Below, one piece after another: positions 6,560 through 44,400 of a DNA stretch of 64,000 bases. The stretch's first letter is position 1. Every line of letters begins with the position of its first letter. This stretch comes from Anaerolineae bacterium (GTDB lineage Bacteria > Chloroflexota > Anaerolineae > Anaerolineales > Anaerolineaceae): the NCBI GenBank assembly GCA_013314735.1, contig JABUFD010000008.1, forward strand, positions 1-64,000. Reading direction: 5' to 3'. A model generated the notes under the pieces. It was not told the origin of the DNA, ran no database searches, and saw only the letters and a program-made list of their open reading frames with translations. Made by a program: the position numbers and the translations under genes.

Positions 6560-6643
6560 CCAACAGGATGCCGGGCAGCCTGCCCGCACCCTGACAAACC
6601 CGGCGGAACCCCGTTCCGCCCCATGTTGAGAAAGGAAATTTGA

Positions 6644-8050: not shown

Positions 8051-8085
8051 TTTTTAACGCTTGGCCCCTGTTACAGGGAACATTT

Positions 8086-8128
8086 CTGCCCGTGTTCGGC
8101 AATATCACGAACACGGGCAGTTTGTTTT
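8086..8128 (+). terminator. rho-independent terminator after the flotillin gene
   Basis: 13-bp stem ctgcccgtgttcg / cgaacacgggcag with a 9-nt loop, followed by TTTGTTTT. Confidence 0.6.
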
Positions 8129-8147
8129 CCCACCCCGGCCCTCCTTC

Positions 8148-8316
8148 CTCCGCCGCGGTGAAGGCACGGGAACCATTTTCACGCTGCCCCGCCTGCCCCA
8201 TCCCGGAGGTGGGTATGAAAGCAACATACACTGTTACTGCACTTCCCACCTCCGGGATGGAATGGATCGGCGAAACGCTGACCCGGTGAAGGGGAACGCC
8301 ACGCGGACAAACCGCC
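8148..8316 (+). repeat. R1 hairpin repeat, copy 1 (REPIN-like; inverted arms ccatcccggaggtggg / cccacctccgggatgg at 8198-8260)
   Basis: Near-identical to 11462-11628. The 5' module ggcacgggaacc[a/g]ttttcacgctgccccgcctgcccc is shared with 10636-10712 and 13275-13340. Confidence 0.75.
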
Positions 8317-8413
8317 ATTCCCCCCGCCCCCACAGCCCCCGGCATGGGCGGGTTCGGGTATAATCAAACCCAGGCGCACCCACCATTGTCCTGAACGGGG
8401 AGGAATACCCACC

Positions 8414-22185: not shown

Positions 22186-22893
22186 CTAAAAATTCTTAAA
22201 TCTATCCCTGATTTTTTTATAAACTTCTTGATTTTTCTGATGGTCTAAATGGCTACTTTTAGGTTTTCGAATAAGCTTAAATTGATCACAGTTACATCCA
22301 AATTTGTTGCAGAGCTTTGACACATTGCCACCATTAACTCCCCCCAAAACAATCAACACACTCGGCGCTAATGCGTTAATTGTAGGGTGAGTAAACTTTA
22401 TCCAAGAATTTTTGCGCGTTTCCGGTGTCTCCCTTTCATTATCAGTTGTACGATACGGTAGCAAATTGATAAACGCAAATTGAGAGAAGTCTTGATATGT
22501 TAATTCTTGGATTTTTTCAAATGCTTCCCAAATCTCCCAATACTTCACAACCTTTGCATAGACCTTATTGGTTATCTCAAATTGTGCCACAACATTGGTT
22601 CGATGTTCTTTTGAGAAGGTTAATTGTTTAAACTTTCGAAGTTCAGGATACAAAATTTCATTACCATTATCCTTCTTTGAACCACCTCCGCCCCCAGGAT
22701 TTCTTCCAATAATCAGTACTCCACCTGGTTGATAGTTGATGCCAATATATCCTGCATGCATAACCTTAGCATCTTCAACATCTACATCAGGCATCAATTC
22801 ATCGGCAAATCCAAAAATCTCCTCCCTTGGTATTTGGGTCATTCGCCACATATGCTCAGCAATTCGAGTTCGGAATTCATCTAAACTACTCAT
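22186..22893 (-). CDS. hypothetical protein encoded in an AT-rich (~35-40% GC) island; Gly-rich loop IGRNPGGGGGS
   Basis: Clean 235-aa ORF with K/N/I-rich codon usage unlike the rest of the window; no family assigned with confidence. Confidence 0.55.
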   Translation of the reverse strand: MSSLDEFRTRIAEHMWRMTQIPREEIFGFADELMPDVDVEDAKVMHAGYIGINYQPGGVLIIGRNPGGGGGSKKDNGNEILYPELRKFKQLTFSKEHRTNVVAQFEITNKVYAKVVKYWEIWEAFEKIQELTYQDFSQFAFINLLPYRTTDNERETPETRKNSWIKFTHPTINALAPSVLIVLGGVNGGNVSKLCNKFGCNCDQFKLIRKPKSSHLDHQKNQEVYKKIRDRFKNF

Positions 22894-26146: not shown

Positions 26147-26269
26147 TGTCTATAAAAATGGCTACAATCATGGATAGTATTCTCTGCAGCCATCGGCGAT
26201 TGATCATGAATGTGATCAATTTTCCTGAACAGGCGGGGAATCATCGAAGAGGATCGAGGAGTGTACAGC
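26147..26269 (+). promoter_or_regulatory. promoter (TACAAT at 26163) plus ~100-nt leader, identical to the leader of the downstream paralog
   Basis: 26163-26272 is base-for-base identical to 29483-29592. Contains a uORF (MDSILCSHRRLIMNVINFPEQAGNHRRGS..) overlapping the kinase start out of frame. Confidence 0.5.
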
Positions 26270-29200: not shown

Positions 29201-29359
29201 ATTGGCAATATCGTGTTTTTGGACCTGACAACCAATATAATACTGGGTGTGTTGCGGCAACATTTCGCCTCGATCCGGTGGTTGACGTTCAGTGTTGATG
29301 ACCACGAGTTGATCTCATTCGGTGATGACGGCATAACCAACATTTGGGGAATCCAATAA
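26270..29359 (+). CDS. Ser/Thr protein kinase - Pro-rich linker - TM - C-terminal beta-propeller (WD40/PQQ-like repeats)
   Basis: GVGGMGAVYRGKD, VAIKRL, HRDVKPGNILF, DFGIVKL, GTPTYMAPE. Hydrophobic helix WVWVLGGLGVLLFLGVALVLLI. Repeated ~40-aa blocks with SPDG/APDGS..L..G..DG.. motifs. GAGGAG RBS 9 nt before ATG 26270. Confidence 0.85.
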   Translation: MPYMVDHRYLVGEQLGVGGMGAVYRGKDTRLQRDVAIKRLQIFGSQADVDQFMKRFEREAIAMAQLQHPNIVGVLDFGQDDQGIFLILQYMPGGSLKDRMTAPFNPQSAAALLAPIADALHYVHDQGMIHRDVKPGNILFDARGNPMLADFGIVKLVEDTPGATLTGTGTAIGTPTYMAPELIGGEFDHRVDQYALGIIFYEMVTGKAPFTGRTPMEAMVAHKYEPLPDPRLLCPGLPQDAWDLIVRVLAKDPEQRYEDSGQFSAALRRLGQPPTPTPQPQPKPGEEPTSLVEDELPFNLPAKTPQPPAPGMQAVSEEDETQGVITPGKGTPVPPPPFVGNETPGGAPLSAPSLVRDEALKPPAKKKRAWVWVLGGLGVLLFLGVALVLLITMLTKGIMEPAATQVAQTHLETKVPTITSRPQPTVTPTLPSQIDNNTASALQVKTRIGKGNANIALYSPDGSLLVIGNSSGFYLLGADTGKELSSVQDIYVTSLAIAPSGNALATLDQDGYLTLWDIQNKFAPAILQQYPAAAPGASLRAATFSPDGNSLAYADYDTIFFYSFESGTVTGQVEWTDSNISQLQFNPDGQSIYGAANQLGLIGLWDMNTLSLTTTFPVGFVFNFALAPDGSLLAVYDSNEGTLKFFKPANASQFMEPIQTNGYVSDLAFSADGASLYGAINGNTISRWILVDDRSQLTYPLNNDQAYLFDLAPDGSSLAWTGFGAVGVFDFDTEQAKFDTDQFDYTGVLVEGWVNGEVLYVNDDHNGSVILRNTSGIAKQHLDSTAITTWLDSVTVSSNGQYLAARSYVNGAIVLLVWDLNTKQLLKQVPLADWVGDFRFSDDSQFLTVVNGMTATVYRTDTWGIHYGYTVTDAALTIAKYYPEFDLLVLAGYGRPLLINPLSGYTVELPLNVPAEGVFDLELSRDGSLLFLVSGKSLLIWNIPDQTFVLEAYDLLPNNAVELALNTSETLLAIGDNIGNIVFLDLTTNIILGVLRQHFASIRWLTFSVDDHELISFGDDGITNIWGIQ

Positions 29360-29466: not shown

Positions 29467-29589
29467 TGTCATCTGAAAGGGTTACAATCATGGATAGTAT
29501 TCTCTGCAGCCATCGGCGATTGATCATGAATGTGATCAATTTTCCTGAACAGGCGGGGAATCATCGAAGAGGATCGAGGAGTGTACAGC
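29467..29589 (+). promoter_or_regulatory. duplicate promoter/leader (identical to 26147-26269)
   Basis: Identical 110-bp stretch including TACAATCATGGATAG and the RBS. Confidence 0.5.
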
Positions 29590-32500
29590 ATGGCCTACAT
29601 GGTGGATAATCGTTATCTGGTCGGTGAACAACTCGGCGTTGGCGGCATGGGTGCGGTCTACCGCGGCAAAGACACCCGCCTGCAGCGCGATGTCGCCATC
29701 AAGCGCCTTAACATCCTGGGGGGAAAAGCCGAAGTCGATCAGTTCATGAAACGTTTCGAACGCGAAGCGATTGCCATGGCGCAGCTGCAGCACCCCAACA
29801 TCGTGCGCGTACTCGATTTTGGGCGGGATGATGAAGGCATCTTCCTCATCCTCGAATTCATGTCCGGCAGGTCGCTGAAAGAGCGCATGACAGCCCCCTT
29901 TGATCCGCGCGCGGCAGCAATCCTGCTGGCGCCGATCGCCGATGCGCTGCATTATGTGCACGAACGGGGCATGATCCACCGTGATGTGAAACCCGGCAAC
30001 ATCCTGTTTGACGCGCGCGGCAACCCCATGCTGGCGGATTTCGGCATTGTCAAGCTGGTGGAGGAATCCCCCGGTGCCACCCTGACGGCGACGGGCATGG
30101 CGGTGGGTACGCCCACTTACATGGCGCCGGAGTTGATCGGGGGTGAATTTGACCACCGCGCCGACCAGTACGCGCTGGGGATCATCTTTTATGAAATGGT
30201 GACCGGCAAACCGCCCTTTAAGGGCCGCACGCCGATGGAAGCGATGGTGGCACACAAGTATGAACCCCTGCCGGATCCGCGCCTTTTGTGCCCCGGCCTG
30301 CCGCAGGATGCCTGGGACCTGATCGTGCGCGTATTGGCGAAGGACCCTGAACAGCGTTACGAGGACAGCGGGCAATTTTCCGCCGCGCTGCGCCGGCTGG
30401 GACAGCCCCCCACCCCAACCCCGCAACCGCAGCCGAAACCCGGCGAAGAACCCACCAGCCTGGTGGAAGACGAACTGCCCTTCAACCTCCCCGCCAAAAC
30501 GCCGCAACCGCCTGCGCCGGGGATGCAGGCGGTATCAGAGGAGGATGAAACCCAGGGCGTCCGTACCCCCGCGCGGGGGCTGCCGCTGGCACAGCCGCAA
30601 TATCACTGGGAACCGCAGCCAGCCGCGTCGGTTCAACCTGCCCCGCCCACCCCTGCGGCGGTTGCGGCGAAGAAAACAATCCCTGCCTGGGCCTGGGTGC
30701 TGGGAGGGGTTGGCCTGTTCACGATGGCAACCCTGGTGGTGGTGGCGGTGCTCCTGATCCGCAACGGGCTGTTCTCACCGGCTGCCACAGAAGAACCCTA
30801 CGCGTTCGAAGCGGCCACCGAAGCGCCAATGGCCGCGGCGGAAGAAACCGCCACGCAAGGGCCAACCGAGGCCCCCACCGCAAGCATGGTGCTTTCCGGC
30901 GGGGTGATCACCGCCGCCAACGTTGACCAGCTGCAGCCTGCATCCATCTTCGGCAAAGGCGGCGACCATCTCCCGCTCTTCACCCCCGATGGACGTTTCC
31001 TCCTGCTGGGCAACACCGACGGGCTGTATGTGTTCGATGCCGTCAGCGGGGTGGAGATCAGCCACACGCCGGGCCGCTACATCACCGCCATGGCGCTTTC
31101 GCCGGACGGCAGCGCCCTGGCCACGTTGGATTACAGCGGTTACCTCAGCCTGTGGTCGATCGGCGACGGCAGCGCGCCTTACCTGTTCCAGGCCTACCAG
31201 TACCAAGGCGGCAACAACTGGGACCTGCGCGCGCTGGCCTGGTCGCCCGACGGCAGTGTGATCGCCTTCAGTGACGCCTACACGATCTACTATTATTCCG
31301 TTGAAAAAAATGATGTTTTCAACACGGCTTATTGGGAAAACAGCCTGATCCGCGACCTGGCGTTCAGCCCGGACGGCAACCTTGTGTATGCCGCCGCCAA
31401 CAACCTCGCCTTGGTGGGGGTGTGGATCGCTGAAACTTCCACCCTGTACACCACCATTCCGGTCAATTACCCCTACTATATCGACCTATCGCCGGATGGA
31501 ACGCGCCTGGCGGTGTTTGACGCCGAGGAATACAGCCTGAAGCTGTTCAGCCTCTCCTCCTACCTCCTGGAACGCGCCTACAGTGTTGACGGGTACATGA
31601 ATGAAATGCGCTTTTCCCCTGATGGCACCGCCCTGTATGCCGTCCTCAGCAACGGCCAGGTCAACCGCTGGGAGGTGGGCGGCAGTGACCAGCCCCTCAC
31701 GCGCCAGCTGCCGGAAGGCTATGGCACACGCTTCTCGCTGTCGCCCGGCGGCTGCCTGGCGGCCTGGAGCAACTGGCTCCGGGTTGGAACCTACGACCTG
31801 TGTCAGGGTACCCCGGGTTTCTCCCTGGATGCTTTCACCACCCGCGGTAACCCGGTGAGGGGCTGGGTGAACGATGAATTGCTGTTCTCCGATACAGAGA
31901 GCCAACCGGGGCGGGTGCTCATCCGCGATATCTTCGGCGATGTGCGCCATGGGCTGGACATCTCATCCTACAACACCTGGATGTACCCGGTCAGCATTTC
32001 CCCCGACGGCACCACCCTGGTTGGCGGGGTGTATTACCAGAACACCTACAATATCCTGCTGTTCGACCTGGCTTCGGAATCGCTGCTGGGGATGTTCGCG
32101 GTGGATGAATATCCAATCGACCTGCGCTTTGCGCCAGACAGCCAGTCTTTTGTCTACTGCGGCAGCAGCCTCACCCGCATTTACAATATTCACAACTGGT
32201 GGGAGGGACCGTTCTACAGCCTGGATGGGTTGGAATACATGCAGGTGGGCAAGTATTTCCCGGCCTATGACCTGCTTGTGCTGGGCCAGTTCGCGAAAGT
32301 GCAGCTGGTATCACCGGCCAGCGGGGAAAGGTTCGAGCTGCCTGTGCCGGGGGGATATGTGGAAGGGATCGCGCTTTCCGCTGACGGCAGCCGGGTATAC
32401 GTGGCCAGCGGCCGTTCCCTGTACGTGTACGACCGCCGGACGGGTGCCTTTGTGGCGCAAGCCCCGGACAGCCTCCCGACAGAAGGATATGCGCTTGCCC

Positions 32501-32697
32501 TGAATGGGTCGGAAACCCTGCTGGCAGTCGGCGATACGCAGGGCGCGATTCACCTGTTCGACGCGCAAAACCTGGGCTGGGTGCGCACCCTCTACCGCCA
32601 CACCTACGGCATGGCAGACCTGCAGTTTGCGCCCGATGACCGGGCATTAACCTCCACCGGTTGGGATGCCCTGAGCGTGGTGTGGGCCGTGCCGTAA
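29590..32697 (+). CDS. Ser/Thr protein kinase - linker - TM - beta-propeller, paralog of 26270-29359
   Basis: Kinase domain ~90% identical at protein level to the upstream paralog; the identical PTPTPQPQPKPGEEPTSLVEDELPFNLPAKTPQPPAPGMQAVSEEDETQGV linker is retained. The C-terminal repeat domain has diverged. Confidence 0.85.
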   Translation: MAYMVDNRYLVGEQLGVGGMGAVYRGKDTRLQRDVAIKRLNILGGKAEVDQFMKRFEREAIAMAQLQHPNIVRVLDFGRDDEGIFLILEFMSGRSLKERMTAPFDPRAAAILLAPIADALHYVHERGMIHRDVKPGNILFDARGNPMLADFGIVKLVEESPGATLTATGMAVGTPTYMAPELIGGEFDHRADQYALGIIFYEMVTGKPPFKGRTPMEAMVAHKYEPLPDPRLLCPGLPQDAWDLIVRVLAKDPEQRYEDSGQFSAALRRLGQPPTPTPQPQPKPGEEPTSLVEDELPFNLPAKTPQPPAPGMQAVSEEDETQGVRTPARGLPLAQPQYHWEPQPAASVQPAPPTPAAVAAKKTIPAWAWVLGGVGLFTMATLVVVAVLLIRNGLFSPAATEEPYAFEAATEAPMAAAEETATQGPTEAPTASMVLSGGVITAANVDQLQPASIFGKGGDHLPLFTPDGRFLLLGNTDGLYVFDAVSGVEISHTPGRYITAMALSPDGSALATLDYSGYLSLWSIGDGSAPYLFQAYQYQGGNNWDLRALAWSPDGSVIAFSDAYTIYYYSVEKNDVFNTAYWENSLIRDLAFSPDGNLVYAAANNLALVGVWIAETSTLYTTIPVNYPYYIDLSPDGTRLAVFDAEEYSLKLFSLSSYLLERAYSVDGYMNEMRFSPDGTALYAVLSNGQVNRWEVGGSDQPLTRQLPEGYGTRFSLSPGGCLAAWSNWLRVGTYDLCQGTPGFSLDAFTTRGNPVRGWVNDELLFSDTESQPGRVLIRDIFGDVRHGLDISSYNTWMYPVSISPDGTTLVGGVYYQNTYNILLFDLASESLLGMFAVDEYPIDLRFAPDSQSFVYCGSSLTRIYNIHNWWEGPFYSLDGLEYMQVGKYFPAYDLLVLGQFAKVQLVSPASGERFELPVPGGYVEGIALSADGSRVYVASGRSLYVYDRRTGAFVAQAPDSLPTEGYALALNGSETLLAVGDTQGAIHLFDAQNLGWVRTLYRHTYGMADLQFAPDDRALTSTGWDALSVVWAVP

Positions 32698-34623: not shown

Positions 34624-34714
34624 CCTCCAAATGGAACAATTTGTAGCGAAATTGTATCATGAAGGGCAATGCGCGGGGAAGTTAAGATCACCCTTCGACA
34701 GCACTTCGGCAGCA

Positions 34715-35075
34715 CTTCGGCAGGCTCAGTGTGAAGCTCAGTGCAGGAGCTCAGGGAGCGTATTATTTCAACGGTCGCCGAGCGGGTTCCTGAGCCTGTC
34801 GAAGGATCGAGGCGACATTCTGCGGGTAACTTACGTTCTCCCCTCGACACACTTCGACAGGCTCAGTGCAGGAGCTCGGGGAGCGTGTTAATGGGGTGCG
34901 TGTTAACGCAACGGTCGCCGAGCGGGTTCCTGAGCCTGTCGAAGGATCGAAGCGACATCCTCCGTCCAAGGCGACATTCTGCGGGTAACTTACGTTCTCC
35001 CCTCGACACACTTCGACAGGCTCAGTGCAGGAGCTCGGGGAGCGTTTTTAAAGGGTGCGTGTTAATGGGCCGGGT
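34715..35075. repeat. left flanking copy (2+ tandem units) of a hairpin repeat (T family: cctgagcctgtcgaagg ... cttcgacaggctcag)
   Basis: Units at 34771-34918 and 34911-35075 share acggtcgccgagcgggttcctgagcctgtcgaagg..gcgacattctgcgggtaacttacgttctcccctcgacacacttcgacaggctcagtgcaggagctcggggagcgtgttaatgg. Same family and orientation at 44170-44400. Confidence 0.75.
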
Positions 35076-35210
35076 ATTAACGGGGAGCGTGTTGTTTCCC
35101 CCCGCAAAAACTGCTTGCGCCCGGTTGCGCAGGGGCGGTTTTTGGCGTATCATTAATATTCGGGCATCAAGCCCGCCGCCAAGTCTATCCACGGGGAGGG
35201 TACCCAACCA

Positions 35211-37259
35211 ATGCACGCCGCCGATTTCACCGAGATTTCCAATTTCATCTGGAATACCGCCGACCTGATCCGCAATTACTTCAAGCGTGGGCAGTACCAG
35301 TCCGTCATCCTGCCCTTCACGGTCCTGCGCCGCATTGACAGTGTGCTGGTGCCCACCAAGCAGGCTGTCCTGGCAGAATACCACAAACGCAAAGGGGAGA
35401 TCGATGACCTTTACCCACGGCTCACCCGCGTTTCGGGCTATGCTTTCTACAACACCTCGCCCTACACCTTCGAGAGCCTGCTGGATGACGCCCCCAACCT
35501 GGCCGCCAACCTGATGGCCTACATCAACGCCTTTTCCCCCAACATGGTCGAGGTGCTGGAGAAGTTCAAGTTCCCCACCATCGTCAAAGAACTGGACGAT
35601 GCCAACCTGCTCTTCCTGGTGATGCAGCATTTTAAGAACATCGACCTGCACCCGGGGCATGTGCCCAACCTGGCGATGGGCTACATCTTCGAAGACCTGA
35701 TCCGCCGCTTCAACGAAGCCCTCAACGAGAACCCCGGCGAGCACTACACCCCGCGCGAGGTCATCCGCCTGATGGTGAACCTGCTCCTGACCGATCCCGA
35801 CCCCGCCTGGCTGCTGCCCAATATCGTCCACAAGGTGTATGACCCGTGCTGCGGCACTGGCGGCATGCTCACCATTGCCCGTGACCGCATCCTGGAACTC
35901 AACCCGCAGGCCGATGTGCGCCTGTTCGGGCAGGAGCTCAACCCCGAAACCTGGGCGGTGTGCAAGTCGGATATGTTCCTCAAAAGCGCTGACGGCCGCG
36001 ACGCCGACAACATCCGCAGTGAATCGTCGCTCTCCAAAGACAAGTTCAAAGAGGAAACCTTCAATCTGCTCCTCACCAATCCCCCGTATGGCATGGATTG
36101 GAAATCGGAAAAGGAATTCATCGACAAGGAAGCCGCCCTGGGTTCGCGTGGGCGCTTCAGTGCCGGTACACCGCGAGTTTCCGATGGCCAACTGCTGTTC
36201 CTGCAGCACCTGATCAGCAAGATGGCTGCCCCGGTGGAAGGTTCCGGCGGGGCGCGCATCGCGATCGTCCTCAACGGTTCGCCGCTCTTCACCGGCGACG
36301 CCGGCTCGGGTGAATCCGAGATTCGCCGCTGGATCCTGGAGCATGACTGGCTCGAAGCGATCATCGCCCTGCCGGAGCAGCTCTTTTACAACACCGGCAT
36401 TGCCACCTATATCTGGCTCCTCACCAACCACAAGCCCGCCGCGCGCCGCGGCAAGGTGCAATTGATCGACGCCACCGGTATGTGGACCCCGATGCGCAAA
36501 TCGCTGGGCGACAAGCGCCGTGAAATTGGCGAGGCGCAGATCACCGAGATCACCCGCATCTTCCACGCCTTCGCGGAAAGCGAGCGCTCGAAAATCTTCG
36601 ACACCACCGCCTTCGGCTTCCGCAAGATCACAGTCGAACGCCCGTTGCGCCTCAACTTCCAGGCCAGTGCGGAGCGCATCGCGCGCCTGCATGAGGAAAC
36701 CGCCTTCAAGAACCTGGCCGCCAGCAAGAAGAAGAACCCCGCCGACCGCCGGGAGGAAGAAGCCGCCGGGCGCGCCCTGCAGCAGGACCTGCTCACTACC
36801 CTGAACACCCTGCCCGGCGAGGTATTCACCGACCGCGCCCGCTTTGAGAAAGCCCTCGACAAAGCCCTGCGCCAGGCCGGGCTGAAGCCCCCCGCCGCGC
36901 TGCGCAAGGCCATCCTCAACGCGCTTTCCGAACGCGACGAAAACGCTGCCCCCTGCCGCGACAGCAAGGGCAATCCCGAACCCGACCCCGACCTGCGCGA
37001 CACGGAGAACGTCCCGCTGGGCGAGGCCATCGAAGACTACTTTGCGCGCGAGGTGCTGCCCTACGTGCCCGATGCCTGGATTGCGCCCGACAAGACCGAT
37101 GCCCTCGACGGCCGGGTGGGCGTGGTGGGTTACGAGATCAACTTCAACCGCTACTTTTACCAATACCAGCCCCCGCGCCCGTTGGCGGAGATCGAAGCCG
37201 AGATCAAGGCGCTGGAGCGGGAGATCATGAGTTTGTTAGGAGAGATGACAGATGAATGA
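35211..37259 (+). CDS. hsdM: type I restriction-modification system, N6-adenine methyltransferase subunit
   Basis: N-terminal HsdM-N block (FIWNTADLIRNYFKRGQY..VILPFTVLRR), SAM motif DPCCGTGGML, catalytic LLTNPPYG. Confidence 0.9.
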   Translation: MHAADFTEISNFIWNTADLIRNYFKRGQYQSVILPFTVLRRIDSVLVPTKQAVLAEYHKRKGEIDDLYPRLTRVSGYAFYNTSPYTFESLLDDAPNLAANLMAYINAFSPNMVEVLEKFKFPTIVKELDDANLLFLVMQHFKNIDLHPGHVPNLAMGYIFEDLIRRFNEALNENPGEHYTPREVIRLMVNLLLTDPDPAWLLPNIVHKVYDPCCGTGGMLTIARDRILELNPQADVRLFGQELNPETWAVCKSDMFLKSADGRDADNIRSESSLSKDKFKEETFNLLLTNPPYGMDWKSEKEFIDKEAALGSRGRFSAGTPRVSDGQLLFLQHLISKMAAPVEGSGGARIAIVLNGSPLFTGDAGSGESEIRRWILEHDWLEAIIALPEQLFYNTGIATYIWLLTNHKPAARRGKVQLIDATGMWTPMRKSLGDKRREIGEAQITEITRIFHAFAESERSKIFDTTAFGFRKITVERPLRLNFQASAERIARLHEETAFKNLAASKKKNPADRREEEAAGRALQQDLLTTLNTLPGEVFTDRARFEKALDKALRQAGLKPPAALRKAILNALSERDENAAPCRDSKGNPEPDPDLRDTENVPLGEAIEDYFAREVLPYVPDAWIAPDKTDALDGRVGVVGYEINFNRYFYQYQPPRPLAEIEAEIKALEREIMSLLGEMTDE

Positions 37260-39150
37260 AAATGAAGGGGTGATTACTCGCATTGATGCAAATGCAAAAA
37301 ATGTCAGCGAATTATTGAAAGATAAAAATTACGAAATTGACTTTTATCAACGAGAATATCGATGGGAAACCCGCCACATCGAAGAATTAATCACTGATCT
37401 TACGGATAGATTTTTTGAAAGTTATCAAGAAACCCACACGAGAAAGGACGATGGGCCTAAATATGTCCACTATTTTTTAGGGCCGATCATTCTCAGCAAG
37501 CGCAACGGCAAAACATTTATCGTAGATGGACAGCAACGGCTGACATCACTCACCCTGTTATTGATCTATTTGAAACACCTTCAAAAAGAACTAAAAATTC
37601 AAAATCCAGTCAAGCTTGACGATCATATATGTTCTGAGGTTAGAGGCACTTATTCCTTCAACCTTTATGTTGAAGATCGGCAGGATGCGATTGCAGCCTT
37701 GTATAATGATGGCACTTACGAACCCACCAATGGTGATGAGTCAACCAGGAATATTGTCAATCGGTACAGTGAGATTGATACCATCATGCCACCGGACATC
37801 AAACATGAGCATGCCATTTTATTATTCACCGATTGGCTGCTTCTGAACGTTGACCTGATTGAAATTGTAGCCTTCTCAGACGAAGAGGCTTACACTATTT
37901 TTGAAACAATGAATGATCGCGGATTGAATCTTACACAAACCGAGATGCTAAAAGGATACCTGATTGCCAATTTGGGGCAGGAGGTCAATAAAAATAAGGC
38001 CAATGACCTTTGGAAGAAACAACTCGCCAGGTTGGTGAAAATCCACAGAAATGAAGAAGGTGACTTCTTCAAACATTGGCTGCGTGCAAAATATGCACTG
38101 ACTGTCCGTTCAGGCGGTCGAGGAGAAACCAACCAGGATTTTGAGAAAATCGGAACGGAGTTCCACAAGTGGGTGAGAGATAAAAAGGATTTAATCGGGT
38201 TGATTACACCCTACGATTACGAGGTTTTTATCAACGAGAAATTCCAAAAGTTTTCCACCCTCTACCAACTGATTCGCAAATATAGCTTTGAATACACACC
38301 CGGTTTTGAAGCCATTTATTACAACGCGTACAACAACTTTACCTGGCAATACCCGATGCTTTTGTCACCCGTTCGCGACAACGATACAAAGGAAGCAGCA
38401 GAACAGAAAATCATGCTGGTTGCCCGGTATATTGACTATTACATCGCCCACCGGGCGGTGAATTATCTGACGTTGAGTTATGCCTCGCAGCGTACCGCTG
38501 TTGCCAACTTCATTTTCGAGGTCAGAGATTTATCCTATGATGATCTGAAGCAGCAAATCAAAGTGAAAGCAAAGGAGATCGAGCATTACTTCGATGGGGC
38601 TGATGAAAAAAATCGCCAGGGTGTGTTGCAATTTGGCCTGAACCAATGGAGCAAGCGATACATCCGCTATATCCTGGCAAGGCTGACAAGCTTTGTGGAA
38701 ACGCAGAGCAACCAATCAGATAAATTCGTTGAATATACATCCACCAAAATCAAACGTCCTTACGAAATTGAGCACATCTGGGCGGCCAAGTTTGACCGGC
38801 ACAAAGATGAATTTTCAAGTGAGTATGCGTTTTTTGAGAAACGGAACCAGATCGGGGGATTGATCCTGGTGCCCAGAGGCTTCAACCAGTCCTACAATGA
38901 CCTGCCATATGAAGAGAAGCTGCCCTTATACCTACAACAGAATCTCCTGGCACAATCACTCAATCAACAGGCCTATCACAACAATCCTGATTTTAAAGCC
39001 TTCCTGCGCAAAAGCGGCCTGCCTTTTCAACCCCATCGGCAATTCCGTAAAGAAGATATCGACAAACGGAACCTGTTATACAAACAATTGTGTGAACAGG
39101 TCTGGAGTTTGAAATCACTGCTGCAGGATGAAGATGATACCAATGCCTGA
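37252..39150 (+). CDS. DUF262 (ParB-like nuclease fold) + DUF1524 (HNH-like) protein, GmrSD-family type IV restriction enzyme-like, embedded in the type I R-M operon
   Basis: N-terminal ..EIDFYQREYRWE..FLGPIIL..DGQQRLTSL (DUF262). C-terminal ..YEIEHIWA..F..N.IGGL.L.PRGFNQS (DUF1524/HNH). Start overlaps the hsdM stop by 8 nt. Confidence 0.75.
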   Translation: MNENEGVITRIDANAKNVSELLKDKNYEIDFYQREYRWETRHIEELITDLTDRFFESYQETHTRKDDGPKYVHYFLGPIILSKRNGKTFIVDGQQRLTSLTLLLIYLKHLQKELKIQNPVKLDDHICSEVRGTYSFNLYVEDRQDAIAALYNDGTYEPTNGDESTRNIVNRYSEIDTIMPPDIKHEHAILLFTDWLLLNVDLIEIVAFSDEEAYTIFETMNDRGLNLTQTEMLKGYLIANLGQEVNKNKANDLWKKQLARLVKIHRNEEGDFFKHWLRAKYALTVRSGGRGETNQDFEKIGTEFHKWVRDKKDLIGLITPYDYEVFINEKFQKFSTLYQLIRKYSFEYTPGFEAIYYNAYNNFTWQYPMLLSPVRDNDTKEAAEQKIMLVARYIDYYIAHRAVNYLTLSYASQRTAVANFIFEVRDLSYDDLKQQIKVKAKEIEHYFDGADEKNRQGVLQFGLNQWSKRYIRYILARLTSFVETQSNQSDKFVEYTSTKIKRPYEIEHIWAAKFDRHKDEFSSEYAFFEKRNQIGGLILVPRGFNQSYNDLPYEEKLPLYLQQNLLAQSLNQQAYHNNPDFKAFLRKSGLPFQPHRQFRKEDIDKRNLLYKQLCEQVWSLKSLLQDEDDTNA

Positions 39151-39300
39151 GCCAATGGCCATGCGCACAACCAGCAACGCTCCTGCCAATTGCTTGCACG
39201 CGGCTGTGCTTTGCGCTATACTATTCACCAGTAAACCCGCCAAGCCTCTGCCCCATTGGGGCATGCGCCACTGTGGTGGGTGTTTCTTTTTGGGGGCAGC

Positions 39301-40629
39301 ATGAATTCCGTCCTCTCCGGCCAATACACCCCCTACCCCGCCTACCAACCCTCCGGCATCGAGTGGCAGGGGGAGATTCCTACGCATTGGGATGTGGTTA
39401 ACTTAAAACATTTGACCGAATGTTTAGATTCAAAACGAATTCCTCTAAATGCAGATCAACGAGGACAAATGCAAGGAGACTATCCTTACTGGGGTGCAAA
39501 TGGAATTGTTGATTTTGTTGGTGACTGGTTATTTGATGAAGAACTTGTGCTGTTAGGTGAAGATGGAGCACCTTTTTTTGATTCCTACAAAGATGTGGCT
39601 TTCTTAGTAAATGGACGAATTTGGGTCAATAATCACATACATATCTTACGGGCAAAAAAAGTGGTTTCAAACTTTCTAGTCTATGTTCTTAACATTGTTG
39701 ATTATAAAAATTTTATCGATGGGAGTACAAGAGATAAACTCACGCAAGGATTAATGGGAATGATACCCATCCCCCTCCCCCCCCTGCCCGAACAACAGAC
39801 CATCGCGGCATTCCTTGACCACCACACGGCGCGGATTGATGCGCTGATCGCGAAGCAGCAGCGCCTGATCGACCTGCTGCACGAGAAGCGCACCGCCCTC
39901 ATCTCGCACGCCGTCACCCAGGGCCTCGACCCCGCCGCCCCCATGCGGGATTCCGGCGTGGCCTGGCTCGGTGAGATTCCGAGTCATTGGGAGGTGCGGA
40001 AAATAAAATTTATCTTGCGGAATAAAAAGAATGCAATAAAGACAGGACCTTTTGGTAGTCAACTAAAAAATTCAGATATGGCATCAGATGAGGTGAAAGT
40101 ATATAACCAAAGGAATGTGATTGATAGTGACTTTTCTACGGGGGATTACTACATTTCGTCCGAAAAATTTTTAGAATTGAGAGAATTTGAAATTTTCCCT
40201 GATGATATTCTGATTACGACAAGAGGTACTATTGGTAGATGTGCAATATTCCCAGAAAACAGAGATAGAGGAATTTTACATCCATGTTTAATAAGGCTTG
40301 AGTTAGATCAGAACAAAGTTTTGAATCAATTTCTTATTTGGTATATTCAAGATGCCAATCAATTTAAAAGCAACATTTTTTTCGAAAGTAATGCAACAAC
40401 CATTGAAGTTATTTATAGCGGGACTCTAAAACAAGTTTCGGTTGCTGTTCCTCCCATTTCGGAGCAATTAGCCATTATGGATTACCTTGACCGCGAAACC
40501 ACGAAGATTGATACCCTGGTGGAGAAGCAACACCAGGTGATTGAAAGATTGCAGGAATACCGCACGGCGCTGATCAGTGCCGCCGTCACCGGCAAGATCG
40601 ATGTGAGGAGGTGGCAGGATGGATTATAA
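39301..40629 (+). CDS. hsdS: type I R-M specificity subunit (two target-recognition domains)
   Basis: Two AT-rich variable TRDs, each followed by a conserved LPPLPEQQTIAAFLD..ID.LI.KQ / VPPISEQLAIMDYLD..IDTLVEKQ coiled-coil spacer. Confidence 0.85.
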   Translation: MNSVLSGQYTPYPAYQPSGIEWQGEIPTHWDVVNLKHLTECLDSKRIPLNADQRGQMQGDYPYWGANGIVDFVGDWLFDEELVLLGEDGAPFFDSYKDVAFLVNGRIWVNNHIHILRAKKVVSNFLVYVLNIVDYKNFIDGSTRDKLTQGLMGMIPIPLPPLPEQQTIAAFLDHHTARIDALIAKQQRLIDLLHEKRTALISHAVTQGLDPAAPMRDSGVAWLGEIPSHWEVRKIKFILRNKKNAIKTGPFGSQLKNSDMASDEVKVYNQRNVIDSDFSTGDYYISSEKFLELREFEIFPDDILITTRGTIGRCAIFPENRDRGILHPCLIRLELDQNKVLNQFLIWYIQDANQFKSNIFFESNATTIEVIYSGTLKQVSVAVPPISEQLAIMDYLDRETTKIDTLVEKQHQVIERLQEYRTALISAAVTGKIDVRRWQDGL

Positions 40630-41128
40630 CAACCTGGTCAAAGACTTTGCCCAACGCACGCGCGAGAACCTGGCCTACATTGACGCCGCCCATGCCCGCG
40701 GCGAAAACGTGTACGAGGTCACCCAGCTGGTCAATTCCTTGCTGGGGCTGTTGATCTTCCCCCAGCAGCGCTGGGTTAACCGTGTTCCGCGCATCGGTCT
40801 CGAAGAACTGGTGCGGCGCGGCTGGCCGGAAATCCATCCCACCCCACGCATCCAGGCAGATGCACACTTTCAACAGGCCGATAACCTGCATGACCTGGTG
40901 CGCGTTCTGCGCAATTCCATTGCCCACTGCAATATCGAAATTTCGGATGTGGATGCCAACAACGAGATATGCGGCCTGCGCATCTGGAACATCAACCGTC
41001 AGGGAGATAAAACCTGGGAGGCGGAGCTATCCATCGCCGACCTGCGCGCATTGGCAGAAAATTTTGCTGTGCTAATGACGCAGGACCCGCGCAATTGGGG
41101 ATCAGCCGCAGGAGGGGAACACCCATGA
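40619..41128 (+). CDS. small HEPN-like protein (R-x4-H motif LRNSIAH) translationally coupled between hsdS and hsdR
   Basis: 169 aa. RBS GAGGAGG before ATG 40619, which overlaps the hsdS stop; its stop overlaps the hsdR ATG (ATGA). RNSIAHCN fits the HEPN R-x4-6-H motif; the family assignment is tentative. Confidence 0.5.
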   Translation: MDYNNLVKDFAQRTRENLAYIDAAHARGENVYEVTQLVNSLLGLLIFPQQRWVNRVPRIGLEELVRRGWPEIHPTPRIQADAHFQQADNLHDLVRVLRNSIAHCNIEISDVDANNEICGLRIWNINRQGDKTWEAELSIADLRALAENFAVLMTQDPRNWGSAAGGEHP

Positions 41129-44100
41129 GCATCTCGGAAAAATCCTTTGAAGAAACCATCGAAGCCGCGCTGTGCGCCGGTGCCCCCGGCCAGCCGCGCA
41201 GCGTGCGCGAAGCCCCGGCCGGGCTGTTTGAACCCGGCGGCTACCGCCAGCGCCCCCCCGCCGACTACGACCCCGCCCTGTGTCTCATCCCCGAGGACGT
41301 GATCGCCTTCCTCCAGGCCACCCAGCCCGAAGAATGGGCCAAACTCAAGCGCCTCAAACGCGAAGGCGCCCGTGACAGCCTGCTGCGCCGCCTCTCGGAG
41401 GAGATCGGCCGGCGCGGCGTGGTCGATGTCCTGCGCAAGGGCATCAAGGATTCCGGCGCGCGCTTCCAGCTCTATTACCACAAGCCCGCCAGCACCCTCA
41501 ACCCCGAAATCCAGCAGCATTACCGCGCCAACGGGTTCACGGTCATGCGCCAGGTGCATTATGCCACCCGCAGCGGTGATGCCGGCAAATCGCTCGATCT
41601 CGTCCTGTTCCTCAACGGCATCCCCCTCTTCACCGCCGAACTCAAGAACGAGCTCACCGGCCAGAACGTGACCCACGCCATCCGCCAGTACCAGCGCGAC
41701 CGCGACCCGCGCGAGCCGCTGTTTGCCGCCGGGCGCTGCCTGGCGCATTTCGCCGTCGACACCCACCTGGTGTATTTCACCACCCACCTGCGCGGGGAGA
41801 AAACCGCCTTTCTGCCCTTCAACCAGGGCTTCGAGCGCGGCGCCGGCAACCCGCCCTCCTTCTTCGGCTACGATACCGCCTACCTGTGGGAACAGGTCTG
41901 GGCGCGCGATTCCGTCCTCAACCTGGTGCAGAACTTCGTCTACCGCCTGGAAAGCGCCGGCAAGGAGCATACCGTCATCTTCCCGCGCTACCACCAGCTG
42001 GATGCCGTGCGGCGCCTGCTGGCAGATGCCCTGGCACACGGCGCCGGGCAGCGCTACCTGATCCAGCACAGCGCTGGCAGCGGTAAGAGCTACTCCATCG
42101 CCTGGCTGGCGCACCAGTTATCCACCCTGCACGATGCCGAAAATAAGCGCGTGTTTGATTCGATCATCGTCGTCACCGACCGGCGCGTACTCGACCAGGC
42201 CCTGCAGCGCCACGTGGAAAACTTTGAGCAAACCCGCGGGCTGGTGGCCAACATCGGCGAGAACCAGCATTCCGCCGATCTTCGTAAAGCACTGGAGGAA
42301 GGCAAGGACATCATCGTCACCACCATCCAGAAATTCCCCTACATCGTTGACACCATCGGCGCCATGAGCCAGGCGCGCTTTGCCGTCATCATCGACGAAG
42401 CGCATTCCTCGCAGGGCGGCGAAACCGCCCACAAAATGCAGCAGGTGCTCAACGTCAGCACCCTGGAAGAAGCCGAAGCGATCGACGCTGACAGCGGCGA
42501 GGACTGGGAAGACCAGGTGGTGGAAGCGGCGCGCTCGCGCGGCATGCTGCCCAACGTGAGCTACTTCGCCTTCACCGCCACCCCCAAAGCCAAAACCCTC
42601 GAACTCTTTGGCACGCGCCGCCCCGATGGGCAGTACGAAGCCTTCAGCCTGTACGCGATGAAACAGGCCATCGATGAAGGCTTCATCCTCGATGTGCTCC
42701 AGAACTACATCACCTACCAGACCTACTGGAACCTGCTCAAGAAGATCGAGGACGACCCGACCTATGACAAAAAGAAAGCCACCTACCTGCTGAAACACTT
42801 TGTCGACCTGCACCACATCACCATCGAGCGCAAGGCCGAGATCATGCTGGCGCATTTTGATGGCCAGGCGCGCCACCAGGTCAACGGCCAGGCCAAAGCC
42901 ATGATCGTCACCCGTTCGCGCCTGCATGCCGTGCGCTATAAACTGATTATCGACCGCCTGATCCGTGAACACGGCTACCCGTTCGAAGCGCTGGTGGCGT
43001 TTTCCGGCAAGGTGGACGACGGCGGCAAAAGTTACACCGAAAGCGGGATGAACAGCGAAAGCAGCGGTGAGCGCATCCCCGAAAGCGGTACCGCCGATGC
43101 CTTCAAAGGCGAGCGCTTCCGCATCATGATCGTGGCGGAGAAATTCCAGACCGGCTTCGATGAACCGCGCCTGCATACCATGTATGTGGACAAGCGCCTG
43201 CAGGGCCTGCACGCCGTGCAAACCCTCTCGCGCCTCAACCGCATCTACCCGCCCCACAAAAAAGAAGTGGTGGTGATCGACTTCGTCAACGAGGTGGAAG
43301 ACATCGAAGCCGCCTTCCTGCCGTATTATGACCGCACCCTGCTCTCACACGAAACCGACCCCAACCTGCTGTATGATTACGAAGGTGAGATTCGCGGCTA
43401 CAACCTGTTCACCGATGATGACCTGAATGCCTTCGCGCGGGAATACTTCAGCCCCAACCCCAACCAGGCGAAACTATACCGCATCTTCAGCCCGGCCCTG
43501 GCGCATTTTGAGCAGTTGGAGAACGCCGACAAAAAAGCCTGCAAGCAATTTTTGAAAAAATACGTGCGCCTGTATGCCTTCCTGGGGCAGGTGGCGCGCT
43601 TCCAGGACCCTGAACTGGAGAAACTGTACTACTACGCCTACTACCTCGACCGCCTGGCAAAGCTGGAAGCCGAAGAACTGCCGCTGGAGATCATCGACGC
43701 CATCGACCTGGAGTCCCTGCGCGTGCAGCACACCGGCACAAGCCGGATCGACCTGAAACAAACCGGCGCCACGCTGGAACCGGAAAGCGGCCTGCCGCAG
43801 GGGATGGAAGATGCGGAGAAGGAAGCCCTATCACGTATCATCGCGGAACTCAACCAGCGCTTCGGCACCGAATGGACCGAGGAAGACCAGCTGCGCGTGA
43901 TCGAGGAAATCGAGCGCGGGTTGGATACCTCACTCGCCCTGCGCAACAGCGTGGCGGTCAACACCCCGGAAAACGCCAAACTGACCTTTGATGACATCCT
44001 CGATGACCTCCTGCAGGAGATGATCGACACCCATTTTAAGTTCTACAAGCAGATCAACGGCAACCCCGACCTCGGCCAGCGCTTCCGCGAGATCATGTAC

Positions 44101-44139
44101 ACCCGCTACCGCGAACGCGTGGCGCCACCAGGCGCATGA
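41125..44139 (+). CDS. hsdR: type I restriction enzyme R subunit (helicase/nuclease)
   Basis: Walker A HSAGSGKS, DEAH box VIIDEAHSS, helicase motif VI QTLSRLNR. Length 1004 aa. Confidence 0.9.
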   Translation: MSISEKSFEETIEAALCAGAPGQPRSVREAPAGLFEPGGYRQRPPADYDPALCLIPEDVIAFLQATQPEEWAKLKRLKREGARDSLLRRLSEEIGRRGVVDVLRKGIKDSGARFQLYYHKPASTLNPEIQQHYRANGFTVMRQVHYATRSGDAGKSLDLVLFLNGIPLFTAELKNELTGQNVTHAIRQYQRDRDPREPLFAAGRCLAHFAVDTHLVYFTTHLRGEKTAFLPFNQGFERGAGNPPSFFGYDTAYLWEQVWARDSVLNLVQNFVYRLESAGKEHTVIFPRYHQLDAVRRLLADALAHGAGQRYLIQHSAGSGKSYSIAWLAHQLSTLHDAENKRVFDSIIVVTDRRVLDQALQRHVENFEQTRGLVANIGENQHSADLRKALEEGKDIIVTTIQKFPYIVDTIGAMSQARFAVIIDEAHSSQGGETAHKMQQVLNVSTLEEAEAIDADSGEDWEDQVVEAARSRGMLPNVSYFAFTATPKAKTLELFGTRRPDGQYEAFSLYAMKQAIDEGFILDVLQNYITYQTYWNLLKKIEDDPTYDKKKATYLLKHFVDLHHITIERKAEIMLAHFDGQARHQVNGQAKAMIVTRSRLHAVRYKLIIDRLIREHGYPFEALVAFSGKVDDGGKSYTESGMNSESSGERIPESGTADAFKGERFRIMIVAEKFQTGFDEPRLHTMYVDKRLQGLHAVQTLSRLNRIYPPHKKEVVVIDFVNEVEDIEAAFLPYYDRTLLSHETDPNLLYDYEGEIRGYNLFTDDDLNAFAREYFSPNPNQAKLYRIFSPALAHFEQLENADKKACKQFLKKYVRLYAFLGQVARFQDPELEKLYYYAYYLDRLAKLEAEELPLEIIDAIDLESLRVQHTGTSRIDLKQTGATLEPESGLPQGMEDAEKEALSRIIAELNQRFGTEWTEEDQLRVIEEIERGLDTSLALRNSVAVNTPENAKLTFDDILDDLLQEMIDTHFKFYKQINGNPDLGQRFREIMYTRYRERVAPPGA

Positions 44140-44169: not shown

Positions 44170-44400
44170 CTCACCAACCATCGAAGGGACATTCTGCGGG
44201 TAACTTGCGTTCTCCCCTCGACAGGCTCGGGGAGCGTATTATTTCAACGGTCGCCGAGCCTGTCGAGGCGACATCCTCCGTCCGAGGCGACATCTTAGTC
44301 CGAAGCGACGTCCCCCACCCGAAGCGACAATGTGCGGGTAACTTGCGTTCTCCCCTCGACAGGCTCGGGGAGCGTGTTAATGGGGTGCGTTAATCAGCCT
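44170..44400. repeat. right flanking copy of the T-family hairpin repeat (direct orientation relative to 34715-35075)
   Basis: gacattctgcgggtaacttgcgttctcccctcgacaggctcggggagcgt[a/g]tta repeated twice; contains internal 13-nt tandem cgaggcgacatc-like repeats. Confidence 0.75.

Follow-up and report, generated by a model that had tools for sequence, protein, structure and literature searches.

A chromosomal type I restriction-modification operon of the Chloroflexota carrying embedded GmrSD-family and HEPN-family genes

GmrSD-family genes are found inside the type I restriction-modification (R-M) operon of Vibrio cholerae VPI-2 (TgvAB) and the type I loci of Campylobacter jejuni (RloF), where, as in the locus described here, they are co-directional with the surrounding hsdM/hsdS/hsdR genes (PMC11411939, PMC4619093). 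TgvAB targets hypermodified cytosines; it protects when cloned without its host system, and protection is lost in DGQQR and His mutants (PMC11411939). The same two properties, protection by the cloned gene and its loss in DGQQR and His mutants, were described for HEC-06, a GmrSD-like protein encoded within Hma systems (preprint of Payne et al. 2024, bioRxiv 10.1101/2024.01.29.577857). An HEPN-type RNase gene can occupy a comparable place: prrC of the EcoprrI locus is embedded in an hsdMSR neighbourhood, inside a type I hsd operon as is the HEPN gene here, and EcoprrI is the textbook model of a layered defence made of R-M plus an RNase (PMC3710099). For another HEPN family, pEK499_p136, Table 1 of Anantharaman et al. 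(2013) contains the entry 'some in operon with R-M genes' (PMC3710099).

We analysed a 64-kb stretch of DNA from an Anaerolineae bacterium, referred to as the window. In it lies a chromosomal type I R-M operon that is intact and belongs to a family common among Chloroflexota; this operon likely carries two predicted, autonomous anti-phage modules, a GmrSD-type nuclease and an HEPN RNase. The identities of the genes, their motifs and junctions, the mosaic composition and the recurrence of the architecture are shown here.

Organisation of the operon and its type I core

Five co-directional ORFs with matching profiles were found where the preliminary description had placed them, and the identities it had given them were right (Table 1). 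On a public contig with an identical locus, genes called independently had the same starts and lengths (682, 632, 442, 169 and 1004 aa).

Table 1 Features of the operon and its flanks (window coordinates)
Feature	Coordinates	Strand	Description
Upstream direct-repeat block	34713..35097	+	units of ~140-160 nt from shared 30-45 nt modules
hsdM	35211..37259	+	682 aa; type I N6-adenine DNA methyltransferase subunit
GmrSD-family gene (embedded)	37252..39150	+	632 aa, single-chain
Non-coding spacer gmrSD/hsdS	39151..39300	+	150 nt
hsdS, type I specificity subunit	39301..40629	+	442 aa, two TRDs
HEPN-family gene (embedded, stand-alone)	40619..41128	+	169 aa; predicted metal-independent RNase
hsdR, type I restriction/translocase subunit	41125..44139	+	1004 aa
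Downstream block, same direct repeats	44182..44390	+	

All three Hsd subunits have the features of type I enzymes. HsdM is a gamma-class N6-adenine methyltransferase that matched Pfam HsdM_N (PF12161, E 1.9e-22) and N6_Mtase (PF02384, E 3.9e-58) and, over its full length, the PADLOC model MTase_I (PDLC03029, E 1.8e-275); its translation contains an NPPY motif (LLTNPPYG) and a SAM-binding motif (DPCCGTGG). HsdS was recognised by Pfam Methylase_S in two stretches (E 4.1e-33) and by PADLOC Specificity_I (E 1.2e-114), and its two TRDs are split by conserved regions. HsdR joins an N-terminal PD-(D/E)xK nuclease to an SF2 translocase motor: Pfam HSDR_N, SWI2_SNF2, ResIII, DEAD and T1R_D3-like were all matched, together with TIGR00348 hsdR (E 1.9e-63), and the D...ELK nuclease motif, GSGKS and DEAH are present in the translation. 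From these sequences, the operon products are predicted to methylate a bipartite site and, using ATP, to restrict DNA that lacks this methylation.

Reading the junctions from the sequence, we found overlaps of 8 nt between hsdM and gmrSD (37252-37259), 11 nt between hsdS and the HEPN gene (40619-40629) and 4 nt (ATGA) between the HEPN gene and hsdR (41125-41128). Each overlapping start has a GGAGG-like Shine-Dalgarno sequence on its 5' side, within the preceding gene. Short overlaps of co-directional genes are very common in prokaryotes; those of 8, 11 and 4 nt show operon organisation and are in themselves ordinary. The junction between gmrSD and hsdS has no overlap, its spacer measuring 150 nt, or 105 nt if the TTG at 39256 is taken as the hsdS start. 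The earlier statement that every junction overlaps is thus correct for three of the four junctions and wrong for this one. For the same reason, the proposal that all five cistrons are translationally coupled can be kept at three junctions and fails for the full set, because coupling does not extend across the 150-nt spacer. The genes probably form two expression blocks, hsdM-gmrSD and hsdS-HEPN-hsdR, with coupling inside each.

The spacer could be aligned with the one that separates gmrSD from an AbiD gene in a sister locus (designated L081), and the last ~65 nt are almost identical. A -10-like box was spotted by eye in both (TATACT here, TATAAT in L081), and identical nested hairpins were predicted in the two spacers. 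Judged from its sequence, the spacer may contain an internal promoter and a structured leader. The hairpins were no more stable than those of shuffled sequence (z -0.4 and -1.1 for the two spacers), and an Rfam search of the spacer gave no credible match. The spacer site was absent from the list returned by a consensus promoter scan of the operon, and promoter and terminator scans of the operon found no more sites than in shuffled sequence.

The two embedded proteins

Profile HMM searches, which the preliminary description had proposed for both embedded proteins, matched GmrSD_N/GmrSD_C in one and PF18736 in the other. The 632-aa protein consists of an N-terminal DUF262 ParB-like NTPase/sensor domain (Pfam GmrSD_N, PF03235, residues 18-237, E 3.5e-32) and a C-terminal DUF1524 His-Me nuclease domain (Pfam GmrSD_C, PF07510, residues 451-571, E 1.7e-8, 34.9 bits against a cut-off of 23). 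Across 23 relatives, Q33-R34, D92-G-Q-Q-R96, F217xxxN221, E505, E507, N545 and N564 are invariant, and H508 is conserved in at least 90%. The protein therefore has a DUF262 domain with QR, DGQQR and FxxxN and a DUF1524 His-Me finger with (D/E)-H-N-N, in keeping with the motif list of the family (QR, DGQQR, FxxxN, His-Me; PMC11411939, PMC4619093). The DUF262 plus DUF1524 identity of GmrSD type suggested earlier was confirmed by these matches and by family motifs that are invariant or nearly so; the DGQQR and DUF1524 residues, whose absence would have spoken against it, are retained. By homology, the DUF262 domain would bind and hydrolyse NTP, sense DNA and control the DUF1524 His-Me nuclease. 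The protein is a predicted type IV-like restriction enzyme and would most likely cut phage DNA whose modifications let it escape the type I enzyme, which is methylation-sensitive.

The best PADLOC match of the 632-aa protein was HEC-06 (E 2e-34, almost full length), and the SspE and 'Orf5' models also matched (E 1e-17 to 1e-27). Its closest solved relatives are remote; in the comparison with solved structures SspE was weakly matched and BrxU was not found. The matches to SspE and 'Orf5' and the comparison with solved structures, together with the 8-nt overlap that couples gmrSD to hsdM (1-4 nt in sister loci), could be taken to mean that the protein is not a modification-dependent type IV enzyme and that it senses a host DNA modification or nicks DNA, in the manner of SspE or DndB, or reads the m6A set by HsdM. 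We consider this unlikely: HEC-06, the best full-length match, defends on its own, dnd/ssp phosphorothioation genes are absent from the operon by ORF and profile search, and TgvAB, the characterised relative embedded in a type I operon, acts on hypermodified cytosines.

The 169-aa protein matched PF18736 (HEPN pEK499_p136) over residues 3-153 (E 7.4e-27, 94.4 bits against a cut-off of 26.6). [quoted passage not shown] In agreement with this rule, the AlphaFold2 model of the protein (pLDDT 86, pTM 0.79) has a four-helix up-down core (helices 3-26, 33-46, 90-102 and 139-154) with an insert (47-89) between helices 2 and 3, and the Rx4H motif (98-103) falls where the third core helix ends. Helix 4 is preceded by an inserted three-stranded sheet (106-138), and E33, falling in predicted helix 33-46, provides the acidic residue of helix 2. 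Among 35 relatives, R98-N99-S-I-A-H103 (LRNSIAH, Rx4H) is at least 90% conserved and R13, T14, N17, E33, T35, Q36, N39 and S40 are invariant. The earlier guess that this is an HEPN protein was borne out by its membership of PF18736, the conserved RNxxxH and a predicted topology that fits HEPN; the structure prediction, which might have pointed away from HEPN, returned a four-helix topology compatible with HEPN.

Metal-independent endoribonuclease activity is predicted from the sequence. Most likely, the protein would be an RNase that stays latent until an infection, when it would stop translation and serve as a second line of defence. The literature searched contained no experimental work on a pEK499_p136 protein, PADLOC v2 has no model for this family, and phage genomes contained no relatives of the HEPN gene. 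Pfam detected the HEPN domain alone, with no regulatory domain, in the 169-aa protein, and the C-terminal extensions of longer family members contained no informative domains.

Genomic contexts, module exchange and cargo slots

No type I gene was detected within 8 kb for 62 of the 79 HEPN relatives sampled from genomes (~78%), whose annotated contexts were housekeeping, transposon or IncF plasmid. This distribution argues against an obligatory binding to Hsd proteins. The remaining 17 loci have type I genes, with the HEPN gene on the same strand in all 17 and at most 42 nt from a type I gene in 16; its position varies, being after hsdR, between two hsdM-like genes, or parted from hsdS/hsdR by cargo. 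There was no conserved partner or antitoxin beside the HEPN gene among 132 neighbouring ORFs of relatives. An upstream ORF of ~170-190 aa is present in many relatives, but these ORFs are mutually unrelated and were rejected as a partner. The immediate neighbours here are hsdS and hsdR, with no adjacent minimal nucleotidyltransferase antitoxin of the kind found in an HEPN-MNT type pair. The idea that the embedded proteins are stoichiometric components, possibly bound to HsdMS, found no support: one junction is a spacer, most HEPN relatives are encoded elsewhere than in type I operons, and those related embedded systems of GmrSD-like type that have been tested function without the host system. 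Both embedded genes would most likely encode autonomous defence modules, not subunits of the Hsd complex, that share the transcription of the operon and travel with it.

In the EcoprrI locus, prrC sits between hsdS and hsdR, and the HEPN gene takes the same place here. By the analogy that Anantharaman et al. proposed for R-M-linked HEPN families (PMC3710099), the protein could be silenced on the Hsd complex and, once a phage anti-restriction protein has disabled the type I enzyme, be freed to act as an RNase, the overlaps then reflecting a physical complex. L081 keeps both overlaps of the HEPN gene (11 nt with hsdS, 4 nt with hsdR), HEPN junctions nearly abut in L001, L028, L047 and L048, and a protein with neither a regulatory domain of its own nor an adjacent antitoxin would fit such an arrangement. 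We nevertheless hold it to be improbable, since no type I gene was detected within 8 kb for 62 of 79 relatives and no conserved neighbour whatsoever was seen, the position of the gene shifts among type I loci, and the bare 169-aa domain lacks the N-terminal ABC ATPase domain that regulates PrrC, a member of another HEPN family. Rather doubtful, too, is a version in which the protein would be a minimal PrrC-like guard, docked on HsdS/HsdR via its variable C-terminal half (beta-sheet insert and helix 4) and unleashed as an RNase when an anti-restriction protein inactivates the type I enzyme. The variable half of the HEPN protein is replaced between two operons that are otherwise 86-90% identical, as are the hsdS TRDs. 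If this version were true, the operon would have in that half a third specificity module open to exchange, and R-M failure would lead to abortive infection by a sensor-less path. The operon and its relatives provide a compact construct for asking whether a bare HEPN protein protects against phage and whether its silence needs the R-M complex.

The composition of the operon is a mosaic. The GC3 values of hsdM (0.83) and hsdR (0.82) are host-like, and values of ~0.8 in codons 1-54 of the HEPN gene resemble those of hsdM, hsdR and the conserved regions of hsdS (0.66-0.82 in the central and C-terminal regions). GC3 falls to 0.2-0.6 across gmrSD and both TRDs, with 0.49 for gmrSD as a whole, foreign to the host, and 0.20-0.34 in the two TRDs. 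These codon compositions mark gmrSD and the two TRDs of hsdS as imports in a scaffold that is host-like. Compared with L081, amino-acid identity is 86% for HsdM, 90% for the GmrSD-family protein, 88% for HsdR, 35% for HsdS, where the alignment is limited to the conserved regions, and 46% for the HEPN protein.

Sister loci share the order of the hsd genes and differ in what lies between them. L081 reads hsdM-GmrSD-AbiD-hsdS-HEPN-hsdR, and L076 hsdM-GmrSD-hsdS-HEPN-hsdR with a gene for a 762-aa protein ahead of hsdR. In L082 and L083, hsdM, GmrSD and hsdS are followed by two other genes and hsdR. L013 has no gene between hsdM and hsdS, and HEPN and a BrxU-like gene before hsdR; L028 carries DUF3800 between hsdM and hsdS, and HEPN between hsdS and hsdR; L001 and L006 are simply hsdM-hsdS-HEPN-hsdR. 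These loci show a shared Chloroflexota scaffold with two cargo slots, slot 1 from hsdM to hsdS and slot 2 from hsdS to hsdR, filled by GmrSD, AbiD, DUF3800, a BrxU-like gene, HEPN or unknown genes. In the operon described here, slot 1 holds the single-chain GmrSD-family enzyme and slot 2 the small stand-alone HEPN protein with an intact Rx4H. The hsdM/hsdR scaffold is conserved, TRDs and embedded genes are exchanged within it, and the contents of the two slots differ from one sister genome to another.

The operon is bracketed by direct repeats (Table 1). Their 30-nt core occurs in only four copies in the window, two on each side of the operon and all on the + strand; a dispersed genomic repeat was rejected as an explanation, the copies being confined to the two operon flanks. 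Among the fetched loci, the identical contig was the only other one with the repeat, none of the JGI metagenome contigs had it, and the public short-read contig L080 terminates within the downstream repeats. No empty site or sister copy showing the arrival of the island was found. The neighbours are housekeeping genes, and the neighbourhood was rejected as a defence island. It is very improbable that the embedded genes are selfish or passive cargo with no anti-phage role here, with the HEPN protein stabilising the island as an addiction toxin, or with the genes merely sitting in a recombination hotspot between the conserved hsdM and hsdR: the middle of the operon is clearly a region of recombination, in which gmrSD, the TRDs and the HEPN gene over its 3' two-thirds differ from the scaffold in composition or sequence, the repeats do enclose the whole operon amid housekeeping genes, and L081 does have the same operon in unrelated, lower-GC flanks, but the catalytic motifs of both embedded proteins are conserved over hundreds to thousands of relatives, which implies selection for activity, sister loci have recognised defence genes as their other cargo (AbiD, DUF3800, BrxU-like), and no antitoxin partner is visible.

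Comparison with described systems

As we infer the enzymatic activities, targets and defence roles of the operon products, they amount to the layered defence put forward in the preliminary description. That reading agrees with published experiments on related embedded GmrSD-like genes (PMC11411939; bioRxiv 10.1101/2024.01.29.577857) and with the published prediction for the pEK499_p136 HEPN family (PMC3710099).

The QR, DGQQR, FxxxN and His-Me motifs are common to TgvAB, RloF and the 632-aa protein; sequence similarity to characterised members is low. TgvA and TgvB are two proteins, whereas the gene here encodes a single chain; RloF lies between hsdR and hsdS, whereas the gene here lies between hsdM and hsdS. 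HEC-06 is single-chain and has DGQQR and E-H motifs, as here, but its scaffold is Hma, where the gene here has a type I R-M operon; what was matched is a family profile, which does not imply orthology. In contrast to PrrC, most relatives of the 169-aa protein are not linked to R-M genes; the namesake clade of pEK499_p136, on enterobacterial IncF plasmids, is ~28% identical to it and lies outside R-M operons. Both GmrSD-like genes and pEK499_p136 HEPN genes inside type I operons have already been published (2013, 2015, 2024), and layered, embedded defence is an established general principle. The locus is a further example and not a new kind of system, and it offers a clear natural case of type I R-M operons as carriers for other defence genes.

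Operon organisation and encoded proteins

Five ORFs, all on the same strand, were found in the region 35211-44139. Independent gene calling on L080, a public short-read contig carrying an identical locus, gave the same starts and lengths, and the exact 169-aa protein is on record from an Anaerolineae metagenome-assembled genome. The preliminary description had all five cistrons translationally coupled, with an overlap at every junction. In the sequence, hsdM and gmrSD overlap by 8 nt, gmrSD and hsdS are separated by a 150-nt spacer, hsdS and the HEPN gene overlap by 11 nt, and the HEPN gene and hsdR by 4 nt (ATGA); since only three of the four junctions overlap, coupling of all five cistrons was incorrect. 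This overstatement aside, the observation was real and its interpretation essentially right. GGAGG-like ribosome-binding sites lie inside upstream genes of the operon. Gene overlaps of such size are ordinary in prokaryotic operons.

Open reading frames of the operon
Gene	Position	Strand	Remark
hsdM	35211-37259	+	
gmrSD (632 aa)	37252-39150	+	
hsdS	39301-40629	+	alternative TTG start at 39256, upstream, less likely
HEPN gene (169 aa)	40619-41128	+	
hsdR	41125-44139	+	alternative TTG at 41095

All three Hsd proteins are of the standard kind and appear intact. HsdM_N and N6_Mtase domains, together with NPPY and SAM motifs, were found in HsdM; HsdS carries two Methylase_S repeats, and HsdR combines HSDR_N, an SF2 motor and T1R_D3-like domains and carries the motifs D..ELK, GSGKS and DEAH.

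The 632-aa protein matched GmrSD_N (residues 18-237, E 3.5e-32) and GmrSD_C (451-571, E 1.7e-8), and its top PADLOC match, nearly full length, was HEC-06. Alignment with 22 relatives (47-90% identity) indicated that the motifs defined by Machnicka et al. 2015 (PMC4619093) are invariant or nearly so: Q33 R34 (QR), DGQQR at 92-96, FxxxN at 217-221 and the His-Me set E505/E507-H508...N545...N564. Motifs of this family were mutated in TgvAB (PMC11411939) and HEC-06 (bioRxiv 10.1101/2024.01.29.577857). With both domains and the DGQQR and His-Me residues in place, the GmrSD-like DUF262/DUF1524 identity proposed earlier was borne out. Solved relatives are remote (9jfl, E 4e-10; SspE, E 0.015) and too distant for substrate inference.

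The 169-aa protein matched Pfam PF18736 'HEPN pEK499_p136' with 94 bits (cut-off 26.6). Among 35 relatives, eight positions do not vary (R13, T14, N17, E33, T35, Q36, N39 and S40), and conservation of R98-N99-x3-H103 is 90% or higher. The AlphaFold2 model built from the alignment of these relatives was confident (pLDDT 86, pTM 0.79). Its helices span residues 3-26, 33-46, 90-102 and 139-154. A poorly ordered insert separates the second and third of these, the RNSIAH motif closes helix 90-102, and a three-stranded sheet (106-138) precedes the last helix. The predicted topology fits the published HEPN rule (PMC3710099), which asks for a four-helix core with a helix 2-3 insert, helix 2 bearing an acidic residue and helix 3 ending in Rx4-6H. 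Profile match, conserved Rx4H and modelled topology thus agree with the earlier guess of a HEPN protein. A profile search placed 2173 clusters (50% identity) in this family, most of them stand-alone proteins 150-170 aa long.

Sister loci, mosaic structure and mobility

The three closest GmrSD relatives looked up (public loci L081, L082 and L083) all lie in the hsdM-hsdS interval of type I operons belonging to the same family. Because of where GmrSD and other cargo are placed in these loci and in L076, the type I scaffold is one with two cargo slots, hsdM to hsdS and hsdS to hsdR. Among the cargo identified in sister loci were AbiD, DUF3800 (for which PADLOC has a model), a DUF262 protein resembling BrxU/HEC-05 and a ~765-aa methyltransferase/specificity-like protein; several small cargo proteins of these loci gave no match. 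The ~765-aa protein recurs directly upstream of hsdR (L076 8462-10750; L082 7936-10239), and its N6-methyltransferase and specificity-subunit-like matches are weak (mad2/mad5-like in PADLOC). It may be the product of a second methyltransferase-specificity gene, a fused one, carried within the type I operon.

Gene order in public loci (M, S, R, hsdM, hsdS, hsdR; x or [n aa], other embedded gene)
Loci	Order
L081 (GmrSD 90% identical)	M-GmrSD-AbiD-S-HEPN-R
L082	M-GmrSD-S-[210 aa]-[767 aa]-R
L083	M-GmrSD-S-[204 aa]-[123 aa]-R
L076	M-GmrSD-S-HEPN-[762 aa]-R
L001, L006, L028	M-S-HEPN-R
L065, L066	M-S-x-HEPN-R
L013	M-S-HEPN-[DUF262]-R
L021, L033, L038, L039	M-HEPN-M'-...-R
L005, L019	R-HEPN
L047, L048	x-HEPN-R

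GC content at third codon positions (GC3) differs sharply among operon parts. It is ~0.8, the level of neighbouring housekeeping genes, in hsdM, hsdR, the central and C-terminal conserved regions of hsdS and HEPN codons 1-54, and lower in gmrSD (0.30-0.62), the hsdS target-recognition domains TRD1 (0.22-0.28) and TRD2 (0.20-0.34) and HEPN codons 55-169 (0.62). DNA of the window and L081 is collinear at 83-86% across hsdM, gmrSD, the spacer and hsdR; in hsdS the conserved regions alone align, and the AbiD gene is exactly the segment that L081 has extra. Amino-acid identity is 86% for HsdM, 90% for GmrSD, 88% for HsdR, 35% for HsdS and 46% for HEPN. The HEPN protein (L081 8581-9048) is ~80% identical in its first 57 residues and ~30% beyond, and its gene is alignable over the first ~160 nt only. 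From this comparison, the 3' two-thirds of the gene were exchanged between the two loci, much as TRDs are in hsdS.

The spacer (39151-39300) aligns with the gmrSD-AbiD spacer of L081 (6154-6327). A ~65-nt stretch is nearly identical in both (conserved core ~39236-39295) and can fold in each copy into the same pair of nested hairpins, which differ by a single G-U to G-C change; a -10-like box immediately precedes the start codon in each. These features suggest a putative internal transcription start and leader. Both spacers folded no better than shuffled sequence, a promoter scan of the operon did not list the -10-like site, and no Rfam match was found.

The flanks of the L081 operon are unrelated to those in the window and lower in GC, which indicates that it moves from one genome to another. 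Its neighbourhood in the window is a housekeeping one, with metG on one side and a NUDIX gene on the other. Direct repeats (34713-35097 and 44182-44390) made of shared 30-45 nt modules, 92-100% identical and in the same orientation, bracket the 9-kb operon. Their 30-nt core is confined to these two flanks within the 64-kb window and was found nowhere in JGI metagenome contigs; no integrase lies near the repeats. The repeats could represent a long duplication of the target, or serve as a recombination substrate when the island is gained or lost.

Elsewhere in the window, two tandem paralogous genes of ~1035 aa (26261-29359 and 29581-32697, +), directly upstream of metG, encode Ser/Thr protein kinases fused to WD40 beta-propellers. 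A 235-aa ORF (22186-22893, -) without a Pfam match falls within the kilobase of lowest GC (0.375 vs ~0.6 elsewhere) and may be another small foreign insertion.

Genomic contexts of the HEPN family

Using the window's own Hsd proteins as queries, we searched 79 fetched genome loci encoding HEPN relatives. Type I genes were found within 8 kb in 17, a lower bound given that the queries covered only relatives of these Hsd proteins, and in 11 of the 40 loci where the sequence extends 5 kb or more in both directions. Every one of the 17 has its type I genes on the HEPN strand, and in 16 the nearest lies within 42 nt. The same search detected no type I gene in the other 62 loci, where no conserved neighbour of the HEPN gene was found either. 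Annotated non-R-M contexts were metabolic, transposon-rich or IncF-plasmid; phage genomes gave no matches to HEPN relatives.

In the four M-HEPN-M' loci (~6500-10000 in each; Burkholderiales and Geomonas), HEPN is flanked by two paralogous hsdM-like methyltransferase genes, with overlaps or gaps of 0-13 nt; an hsdR-like gene follows after ~1.2 kb. Here the same HEPN family is carried by an R-M locus of different architecture.

Proposed layered defence and known systems

The most likely reading, which we hold with reasonable confidence, is a layered but modular defence, all enzymatic activities being predicted from homology. The type I enzyme would restrict unmethylated DNA, the GmrSD-like enzyme would attack DNA evading it, most plausibly modified DNA, and the HEPN protein would serve as a latent RNase backstop. 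The embedded genes would act independently, yet be expressed and moved together with the operon. They are probably autonomous, because the majority of HEPN relatives show no R-M linkage, the HEPN position within type I loci varies, and the tested embedded GmrSD-like systems HEC-06, BrxU and TgvAB function without their host systems (PMC11411939; bioRxiv 10.1101/2024.01.29.577857). The main rival makes HEPN a PrrC-like guard kept silent by the Hsd complex; it would explain both the tolerance of a bare HEPN RNase without antitoxin and the tight HEPN junctions with hsdS and hsdR, and we consider it improbable.

All elements of the locus are already published. The commonest neighbours of GmrSD homologues are type I R-M genes, and Campylobacter type I loci contain the DUF262 protein RloF (PMC4619093). 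TgvAB, likewise GmrSD-like and carried inside a type I operon, has been proven to act against phages whose DNA is hypermodified (PMC11411939). 'Guilt by embedding' surveys, which included type I R-M, found GmrSD-like genes to be frequent cargo and embedded genes 96.7% co-oriented (bioRxiv 10.1101/2024.01.29.577857). For the pEK499_p136 family, 'some in operon with R-M genes' was noted, R-M operons in which HEPN and ParB-HNH genes occur together are on record, and multi-pronged R-M and HEPN defence was proposed from the PrrC analogy (PMC3710099). Specific to this locus are a HEPN family absent among PADLOC v2 models and with no experiment found in the searched literature, the presence of both cargo types together in one compact operon, and the clear two-slot picture provided by the sister loci.
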